Assembly (NCBI RefSeq): GCF_024223415.1
Contig: NZ_CP100500.1
Strand: one strand, 5' to 3'
Length of the DNA: 64,000 bases
Source of the DNA: Escherichia coli
GTDB taxonomy: Bacteria; Pseudomonadota; Gammaproteobacteria; Enterobacterales; Enterobacteriaceae
Part shown: one piece after another, positions 55,632 through 57,278 of the stretch
Position numbering within the stretch: the stretch's first letter is position 1
Layout: each line of letters opens with the position of its first letter
Notes under the pieces: generated by a model
The model's input: only the letters and a program-made list of their open reading frames with translations
Databases searched by the model: none
Told to the model about the DNA's origin: nothing
Program-made: the position numbers and the translations under genes

Positions 55632-55927
55632 GGAAGGTGCGAATAAGCAGGTCATTTCTTCCCAAGCTGACTCGCTGATTAAAATTTCGCGGATCTGGGC
55701 CGATTTTTTTCCCGCAAACACATCGAATCAGCCTATTTAGGCTATTTTTTCCACCATTTCTGGCGTTATTTCCGGTTTTTACTGAGATCTCTCCCACTGA
55801 CGTATCATTTGGTCCACCCGAAACAGGTTGGCTAGGGTGAATAACATCGCCAGTTGGTTATCGTTTTTCAGCAGCCCCTTGTATCTGGCTTTCACGAAGC
55901 CGAACTGCCGCTTGATGATGCGAAACG
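55632..55927 (-). mobile_element. IS5 end fragment (about 296 bp), truncated by IS1
   Basis: Begins with IS5 terminal repeat GGAAGGTGCGAATAAG; minus strand encodes the transposase C-terminus ..[41 protein letters not shown]. Confidence 0.78.
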
Positions 55928-55983
55928 GGGTAATGCTGCCAACTTACTGATTTAGTGTATGATGGTGATTTTAAGGTGCTTGC

Positions 55984-56259
55984 GTGGCTTCCATTTCCAT
56001 CAGATGTCCTTCCTGCTCCGCTACTGAAGGCGTGGTGCGTAACGGCAAAAGCACTGCCGGACATCAGCGCTATCTCTGCTCTCATTGCCGTAAAACATGG
56101 CAACTACAGTTCACTTACACCGCCTCTCAGCCCGGTACGCACCAGAAAATCATTGATATGGCCATGAATGGCGTCGGATGTCGCGCCAGTGCACGCATTA
56201 TGGGCGTTGGCCTCAACACGGTTTTACGTCACTTAAAAAACTCAGGCCGCAGTCGGTAA
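55984..56259 (+). CDS. insA: IS1 InsA
   Basis: 91-aa ORF with zinc finger [15 protein letters not shown]... Confidence 0.9.
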
Positions 56260-56681
56260 CCTCGCGCATACAACCGGGCAGTGATGTGATTGTCTGCGCT
56301 GAAATGGACGAACAGTGGGGCTACGTCGGTGCTAAATCACGTCAGCGCTGGCTGTTTTACGCGTATGACAGGATACGGAGGACGGTTGTGGCGCACGTCT
56401 TCGGTGAACGCACTCTGGCCACACTGGAGCGTCTTCTGAGCCTGCTGTCGGCCTTTGAGGTCGTGGTATGGATGACGGATGGCTGGCCGCTGTATGAATC
56501 ACGCCTGAAGGGAAAGCTGCACGTTATCAGCAAGCGTTACACTCAGCGCATTGAGCGACATAATCTGAATCTGAGACAACATCTGGCAAGGCTGGGACGG
56601 AAGTCACTGTCGTTCTCAAAATCGGTGGAGCTGCATGACAAGGTCATCGGGCATTATCTGAACATAAAACACTATCAGTAA
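56178..56681 (+). CDS. insB: IS1 InsB (expressed as an InsAB' fusion by frameshift)
   Basis: 167-aa ORF overlapping insA in the -1 frame. Confidence 0.85.
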
Positions 56682-57278
56682 GTTGGAGTCATTACCAACG
56701 GTAAATATCCATAAGTGTGGGCTTGCGGAATAAATAGTTTGGTTAAAGATAAGGTGGTTTAATACTGCTGAGTATTTTATAGGAGATATGATGTTGTTTT
56801 ATAAACAAACTAAAAAACATGAAGTTTAATTGATAGGGGACAATGAAATCTCCTTTTTAAACTCAATTGCTATGTTGGGTTTATGGGGTTGCTATAAACG
56901 GTTTTGAATAAACGCTTTACTATTCTCATGAAAACAGTGTTATGTTGTTATTTTAACAACCCCGCATTGTTTTTTGATGGGATGGGTATTAAGACTTTAG
57001 AGAAACTTTATAAATAAATATATGTATTCAATAGTGGCGAAAATAATAACCCATCTTATTATTACATTGTGGAAGTGCTCTTTTTTATTATCGCTCATGT
57101 TTTACCTTTCTGTTAAAACATATTCTTTCGGATATGTAAAATGGTAAGAGATAGTTAATCTACGTATGCATGGGGGCGTTTCATTGCATGGCGTTATAAT
57201 CTGGCTTGTATATAAAGGCACTATAAGTTTTACTCTTACAGTGCCTTTATTTGGCCATGATTTACCCTCTACAATAAA

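Follow-up and report, generated by a model that had tools for sequence, protein, structure and literature searches.

An IS1 element beside a truncated ISKpn26-like element marks a probable adjacent-deletion junction in a selC island of Escherichia coli

A complete IS1 element and a truncated insertion sequence of the IS5 family lie end to end in a 64,000-nucleotide stretch of Escherichia coli (RefSeq contig NZ_CP100500.1, assembly GCF_024223415.1). This whole stretch is called here the window. The window is an AGI-3-type selC island. It was 99.8% identical to strain BEN2908 over 4 kb, across the junction of the two elements, and both shared the gene order fos operon, IS5 fragment, IS1, ykgR, glycoside hydrolase family 31 (GH31), major facilitator superfamily (MFS) and LacI. 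Genomes A14, S51, KV7 and other complete genomes were 100% identical to the window over 4 kb. In relatives, the right module continues into an integrase gene and tRNA-Sec; the window stops before selC. The AGI-3 island of the avian pathogenic E. coli BEN2908 was reportedly published by Chouikha et al. in 2006 (GenBank AY857617), and the fos locus is said to have been described by Schouler, Porcheron and colleagues. The presence of fos on AGI-3 is documented (PMC3325963), and AGI-3 has been called modular in the literature, with a 'module 5' named (PMC4807369).

The junction is flanked by convergent units, with the fos operon running rightward and the GH31-MFS cluster running leftward toward IS1. 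Table 1 gives the features of the locus.

Table 1 Features at and around the IS1/IS5-family junction, in window coordinates.
Feature	Coordinates	Strand	Basis or remark
fosK-type kinase gene, final gene of the fos operon (left module)	54389..55351	+	open reading frame; RefSeq 'aminoimidazole riboside kinase / PfkB' in identical genomes
Terminator-like hairpin and T-run 3' of the fos operon	55460..55487	+	consensus scan
TTAG, probable 4-bp IS5-family target copy beside the outer end of the fragment	55628..55631	.	sequence; ISKpn26 with TTAG on both sides at the same site in pLR-25_1
ISKpn26-like IS5-family end fragment, 297 bp, positions 1-297 of 1196, transposase-distal inverted-repeat end	55632..55928	-	99.7% identity
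Transposase remnant, last 49 codons and stop	55779..55928	-	RefSeq pseudogene 'IS5/IS1182 family transposase, missing N-terminus' in identical genomes
Complete IS1, 768 bp	55929..56696	+	exact strings, BLAST
IS1 left inverted repeat, joined to variable left flanks	55929..55951	+	20 of 23 positions match the right repeat
insA, 91 aa, GTG start	55984..56259	+	PF03811 E 5.9e-20; PF12759 E 4.9e-30
insB' frame, DDE domain	56178..56681	+	PF03400 E 1.3e-74, full-length 1-131/131
TTAAAAAAC, motif for programmed -1 frameshifting where insA and insB' overlap	56233..56241	+	sequence
IS1 right inverted repeat	56674..56696	+	joint to ykgR/GH31 fixed in 203 genomes
AACGGTAAA, putative remaining copy of the 9 bp of ssb-ykgR spacer originally targeted by IS1	56697..56705	.	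inferred from empty sites
ykgR-like small open reading frame, first annotated gene of the right module	56997..57098	-	RefSeq annotation in identical genomes
GH31 glycoside hydrolase gene (right module)	57279..59666	-	open reading frame and annotation

The right-hand element belongs to the IS1 family, as revealed by its length, its imperfect inverted repeats of 23 bp at the two termini (GGTAATGCTGCCAACTTACTGAT and GGTAATGACTCCAACTTACTGAT; family start GGT(A/G)ATG), its insA (zinc ribbon and HTH) and insB' (DDE) domains, all scoring far above the Pfam cut-offs, and its A6C frameshift motif. An identical copy is annotated by RefSeq as 'IS1 family transposase, programmed frameshift', and copies with 100% identity were found in EC958, O78 strain 3, AMSCJX03 and FDAARGOS_1259. 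The G at position 55929 can be assigned to IS1 and to the IS5-family fragment alike.

The left-hand element had been called IS5 in a first-pass annotation made from the sequence. The name was right for the family and too specific for the element. The fragment was only 85.5% identical to canonical IS5 and matched, at the identity given in Table 1, an ISKpn26-like isoform, namely the 1196-bp copy in the Rac prophage of K-12, which RefSeq assigns to the 'ISKpn26 family' and which is flanked by a CAAG duplication. A complete ISKpn26-like element has 1196 bp and repeats GGAAGGTGCGAA and TTCGCACCTTCC at its two ends. The window keeps one inverted repeat only and lacks 899 bp: positions 55632-55928 are a fragment derived from an IS5-family member. 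It opens with the terminal repeat GGAAGGTGCGAATAAG, with TTAG just before it. Target duplications of this family are 4 bp long and made at YTAR sites; the TTAG of the window is single-sided, the second target copy presumably having been deleted. A Pfam search of the 49-codon transposase remnant, which is too short for such a search, gave no match. At the same site, a near-complete copy in strain SW070917 encodes a 326-aa protein with PF01609 (E 2.1e-35) and PF05598 domains.

The first-pass annotation had further claimed that IS1 adjoins the truncated element without a target duplication, and this was confirmed. The 9-bp flanks of IS1, GCGAAACGG on the left and AACGGTAAA on the right, agreed at 0 of 9 positions, and realignment revealed no flanking repeat of 6-14 bp. 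The direct duplication expected of a simple IS1 insertion, of 9 bp or occasionally of 8 bp or another length, was thus not present at the window IS1. Such a duplication is a property of the insertion event and not of the element, so its absence indicates a later rearrangement. The annotated layout was also correct, with two small corrections: the length of the fragment is 297 bp instead of 296, and the last base of IS1 is 56696 instead of 56695. As had been stated, the sequence 3' of IS1 is unrelated to IS5. No IS5 similarity was found from 56697 onward, where the sequence runs on unbroken as the ssb-ykgR spacer known from islands without IS1.

The 5-mer AACGG directly borders IS1 on both sides (55924-55928 and 56697-56701), for which the chance is ~1e-3 per junction. 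The left copy is native to ISKpn26 and the right copy to the ssb-ykgR spacer, and their sharing is probably a coincidence. We considered AACGG as a short duplication, made by IS1 entering an already fused IS5/ykgR joint. This was rejected, because SW070917 and NCTC9064 keep 885 bp more of ISKpn26 between the same flanks.

The history of the right junction was followed in 5426 complete E. coli genomes. The right flank (56697-57278) was present in 330 of them and joined to this IS1 in 203. The remaining genomes with the right flank (~127) include sites without IS1, where ssb directly precedes ykgR. Such sites were found in BL21, EC50, FT130, TUM10008 (with trbC-ssb) and AST46. The spacer of the empty site, as in EC50, reads GGTTGACAT followed directly by AACGGTAAATATCC. 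An ordinary IS1 insertion at this site predicts a left flank ending in GACATAACGGTAAA. This primary insertion, searched with a synthetic query of ssb-side flank, AACGGTAAA and IS1 start, was found in 0 of the 5426 genomes, and all known carriers of this IS1 had a rearranged left side.

At least six different sequences adjoined the exact left terminal base of IS1. Three of them belong to the fos lineage: ISKpn26 1-1184, 12 bp short of the complete element, in SW070917 and NCTC9064; ISKpn26 1-297, 899 bp short, in the window type; and, in O78 strain 3, the fos spacer ~54 bp past the IS5 site, the whole element being lost. This series is nested and colinear, from 1-1184 over 1-297 to none, with ~54 bp more lost. 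The window-type junction was aligned in a single piece in 24 complete, independent genomes, whose sources were poultry, pigs, cattle, humans, an opossum and vegetables. Two further left flanks form a second nested series. In EC958 and 92 other genomes (93 in total), IS1 adjoins a truncated open reading frame beside a BREX-1 system, and in AMSCJX03 it adjoins the interior of pglX, an arrangement that equals that of EC958 minus exactly 7,359 colinear bases. The sixth left flank, a truncated DUF2254 gene, was found in 19 genomes.

In AMSCJX03, the IS1 end cuts the BREX-1 methyltransferase gene pglX, and brxC and the brxB-like and brxA-like genes are gone with the 7,359 bp. From this gene content, the BREX defence system of AMSCJX03 is presumably inactivated. 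We also examined whether the BREX-type and DUF2254-type flanks could be placed in a single nested series by means of NR329; the arrangements were non-colinear. The longer ISKpn26 of SW070917 was ruled out as a conversion from a resident donor, because this genome has a single ISKpn26 copy. A canonical IS5 to the left of a BCCT transporter gene in this island also has variable left flanks, a truncated DUF5983 gene versus a truncated brxA (NR329 and FDAARGOS_1259). This is terminus-anchored variation of the same kind as that of IS1.

Deletions were also found on the other side, at least three of them beginning at the exact right terminus of IS1. NCTC9041 lacks window positions 56697-60849 (4,153 bp) and has lost ykgR, GH31 and most of the MFS gene. 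NCTC9064 lacks 7,408 bp from the right terminus, and 65COLEC lacks ~7,470 bp (~7.5 kb), a loss that extends to the integrase gene's 3' end. With these 7.4-7.5 kb the right module is lost entirely, as far as the integrase gene or into it.

More complete versions of the IS5-family element were found at the same site, a comparison that the first-pass annotation had proposed. SW070917 and NCTC9064 hold ISKpn26 1-1184 against the same IS1 end, and plasmids hold the complete element. Plasmids pLR-25_1 (IncY), pNDM-M121 (IncHI2/IncY) and OQ534120-3 matched window positions 53300-55928 fully, including the whole 297-bp fragment, the OQ534120-3 plasmids being known from this match alone. RefSeq annotates an ISKpn26-family transposase at the site of the match. 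In pLR-25_1, a complete 1196-bp ISKpn26 lies at the identical nucleotide 3' of fosK, with TTAG on both sides. Such a complete element between two TTAG copies at the identical site means that the chromosomal fragment is a truncation and not a partial insertion. Across the 12.6-kb locus, pNDM-M121 was 99.97% identical to pLR-25_1. Further along the IncY/IncHI2 plasmids, ISKpn26 is followed by a ~3.9-kb autotransporter gene and then by an IS1D in the orientation of the window IS1, ~91% identical to it; the pLR-25_1 copies, annotated IS1D and IS1B, were 90.6-90.8% identical to the window IS1. The fos genes also occur on plasmids of Salmonella and Klebsiella and on pEQ2 (IncHI1), which has no ISKpn26 at this site.

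Two side observations concern these plasmids. The plasmid autotransporter gene is 96.5% identical to the copy of the BL21-type selC island, where it is inverted. The homology between pEQ2 and the island stops exactly at the ISKpn26 site, and in pLR-25_1 the second TTAG is followed by sequence unlike the continuation of pEQ2. It may be that rearrangement also took place at the outer junction of ISKpn26.

The IS1 copies at the locus were not all alike. A 5-bp deletion (ACAAC; window 56576-56580, IS1 positions 648-652) frameshifts insB' in some genomes; the window copy is intact. The deletion allele was carried by 12-13 genomes overall, among them BEN2908 and GF60, which have the 297-bp stub, and SW070917 and NCTC9064, which have the 1184-bp ISKpn26. 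It was also found at the unrelated hchA locus in SCZE5. Its distribution suggests gene conversion among IS1 copies or recurrent mutation. A kinship of BEN2908 and SW070917 through this allele was rejected: the flanking single-nucleotide polymorphisms (SNPs) gave no support, and the allele occurs at an unrelated locus too. The IS1 of 65COLEC differs by ten SNPs clustered at positions 157-265 and is otherwise identical. The cluster resembles a short tract acquired by gene conversion from a different variant of IS1.

Other insertions hit the same region. In GF60, ISCro1 lies within IS1, 39-47 bp from the left end, with window positions 55967-55975 duplicated. Genome 510016 has ISCro1 in the IS5 stub and ISEc10 in IS1 near its left end, with window positions 55959-55967 duplicated. 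In NCCP 13717, the fos kinase gene is interrupted by ISEc10.

With a probability of roughly two in three (0.68), we interpret the window junction as an adjacent deletion that arose when IS1 transposed intramolecularly, possibly in steps. IS1-mediated adjacent deletions were reportedly first described by Reif and Saedler in 1975, in the gal region of E. coli K-12. The locus has their features: the IS is retained, one endpoint lies at its exact terminus, the other endpoint is variable and colinear with less-deleted relatives, and there is no target duplication. Terminus-anchored deletion has the signature seen here: many sequences meet IS1 exactly at its ends, and the opposite junction stays constant in 203 genomes. 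Such a pattern supports the mechanisms proposed by the first-pass annotation, which were IS1-mediated adjacent deletion or recombination between IS1 copies. Adjacent deletion by intramolecular transposition is typical of IS1 and Tn9 (PMC9330008), and IS-adjacent deletions erase target duplications and can enlarge stepwise, as seen in the long-term evolution experiment (LTEE; Ngan et al. 2024, PMC11708052).

Under this interpretation, a single insertion would have brought one IS1 into the ssb-ykgR spacer of an island associated with selC, where it then stayed. Its ends would repeatedly have attacked nearby DNA on the same molecule, by intramolecular, replicative-type transposition. Each such event would delete the interval between the IS1 terminus and the new target, keep IS1, destroy the 9-bp duplication and join a new sequence to the terminus. 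In the fos (AGI-3) lineage, an originally complete ISKpn26-like element would have been located just 3' of fosK, and the left end of IS1 would first have become joined to it 12 bp inside its far end. The window state, with 885 bp fewer than this 12-bp-truncated state, could be a further deletion from it or could have arisen independently from an earlier ancestor. The order of events, the identity of the DNA first lost and the role of transposase rather than host recombination in making the joints are what we infer from the comparison of genomes.

Several points weigh against adjacent deletion. The fos, BREX and DUF2254 left modules are mutually non-colinear, and the differences between them may reflect module exchange and not deletions from one giant ancestor. 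In BEN2908 and SW070917, insB' is frameshifted, so deletions there would need transposase in trans. The six left flanks come from a sample that leaves ~70 of the 203 left junctions outside. IS1 copies at the locus do recombine, as seen in the 10-SNP patch of 65COLEC and in the ACAAC allele, which is incongruent with the IS5 truncation state. Finally, insertion of a second IS1 and subsequent recombination between the two copies would yield the very same product, and sequence alone cannot separate these routes.

This two-step route is the best of the alternatives, and we consider it unlikely. A second IS1 in the same orientation would have inserted into ISKpn26 (and, in other lineages, at every further endpoint), and RecA-dependent recombination between the two copies would then have deleted the interval. 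This yields exactly the product seen, in host genomes that hold several to dozens of IS1 copies. Recombination between IS copies is a frequent cause of missing duplications (PMC11708052), and here it is visible in the 65COLEC patch and in the spread of the ACAAC allele across otherwise unlinked backgrounds. However, by this route each of at least nine endpoints, which all lie a few kb or less from a single resident copy, would have needed an IS1 insertion of its own in the same orientation. An intermediate with two IS1 copies was found in 0 of the 14 inspected loci with this IS1. The IS1 was 100% identical in five of the six left-junction types, and thus no chimeric IS1 marks a crossover.

For the first junction of the fos lineage only, 12 bp inside ISKpn26, an acquisition from a plasmid was also weighed, in which the fos-ISKpn26 segment joined the island by IS1 replicon fusion or by recombination between plasmid and chromosomal IS1 copies. 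On the IncY/IncHI2 plasmids, fos and a complete ISKpn26 at the identical site form a segment that lies between IS1 copies of the same orientation, and fos is also found on IncHI1 pEQ2 and on the Salmonella and Klebsiella plasmids. Yet the plasmid IS1 is only ~91% identical to the island IS1, and the ~3.9-kb autotransporter gene between ISKpn26 and IS1 means that an IS1-anchored deletion would still be needed. The window has neither a second IS1 nor another long repeat, apart from a 41-bp tandem. Acquisition cannot account for the passage from the 12-bp to the 899-bp truncation, which is colinear. A plasmid origin of the first junction is improbable in our view.

It is very improbable that IS1 entered the DNA break of an unrelated deletion without making a target duplication, as in the model of Ngan et al. 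(2024). Duplication-less IS movements do coincide with large rearrangements (PMC11708052), but 203 genomes share one right junction alongside many left flanks, so IS1 was in place before the left-side events. An assembly or scaffolding artefact at the repeat boundary, IS elements being classic sites of misassembly, is effectively ruled out by an identical single-piece junction in 24 complete genomes sequenced independently, from different hosts and laboratories.

The search of the window for repeats found no second copy of IS1 or of IS5 that could point to an inversion or a composite transposon, the sole long repeat being the 41-bp tandem at 19874-19955. The tandem lies in the left-hand CP4-type module; its 41-bp unit (TGGTTTTCATGAAATGACTCC...) is perfectly duplicated and is overlapped by minus-strand open reading frames. 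At the left border of the fos module (39929-45517), an IS100 with frameshifted istA, an ISEc27 (IS3 family) and an adjacent integrase-core fragment were found. An aldo/keto reductase gene and frameshifted MFS genes sit amid this IS debris.

The terminator-like hairpin 3' of the fos operon was kept in all deletion variants inspected. In O78 strain 3, which has the deepest leftward deletion of the fos type, the endpoint (~55574-55578) is 3' of the hairpin. As the junction is located between convergent operons and 3' of this hairpin, a regulatory effect is not expected. A scan for promoters and terminators around the junction gave consensus-level matches only, near shuffle expectation. An 81-codon minus-strand open reading frame (55858-56103) and a promoter match of 9/12 (consensus level, 55915-55942) cross the joint between IS1 and the IS5 stub. 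Both are most likely meaningless by-products of the fusion.

The junction is most likely a standard IS1 deletion scar, formed by a known mechanism in a published island. This reading explains why the IS1 of the AGI-3/selC island has no target duplication and why a mere stub of the IS5-family element is left, and it sets the boundary between the fos and GH31 modules. Mildly notable is the number of independent two-sided, terminus-anchored deletions left by a single IS1 copy. The locus offers a natural case of one such copy with nested deletions on both sides across E. coli, with BREX truncated and the GH31 cluster lost. These data can be used for reconstructing the evolution of selC islands and for typing them; no new question is opened. 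A more far-reaching idea casts this IS1 as a generator of deletions that would be long-lived, would work on both sides and would have its products retained by selection, a standing switch that sheds island modules. If so, lineages could lose the genes for BREX defence, the sugar cluster with GH31 and the DNA that lies downstream of fos. For this IS1, at least nine independent terminus-anchored endpoints were counted; we regard the idea of selected products as unlikely.

Compared with AGI-3 of BEN2908, the window differs in its intact IS1: that of BEN2908 has the 5-bp deletion that frameshifts insB' and one SNP. The BREX-bearing GI-selC island of EC958 (ST131) shares with the window the integrase, TPR, LacI, MFS, GH31 and ykgR genes, the IS1 copy and the right junction, with 99.98% identity over 8 kb. 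To the left of IS1, however, it carries the truncated open reading frame by BREX-1 instead of fos and the IS5 fragment, and shows no similarity to the window. The classical adjacent deletions of IS1 and Tn9 likewise start at the exact terminus, have a variable far endpoint, leave the IS intact, lose the 9-bp duplication and occur on either side. No mechanistic difference from them is apparent. Those were selected in the laboratory, whereas the deletions proposed here are deduced from natural variation among complete genomes. In the LTEE, the IS150 deletions likewise had the IS first, lacked a target duplication and grew over time, which parallels the 12-bp, 899-bp and element-gone states of the fos lineage. 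There, the IS3-family element IS150 was followed in time-resolved laboratory populations; here, IS1 was seen in a cross-section of wild genomes.

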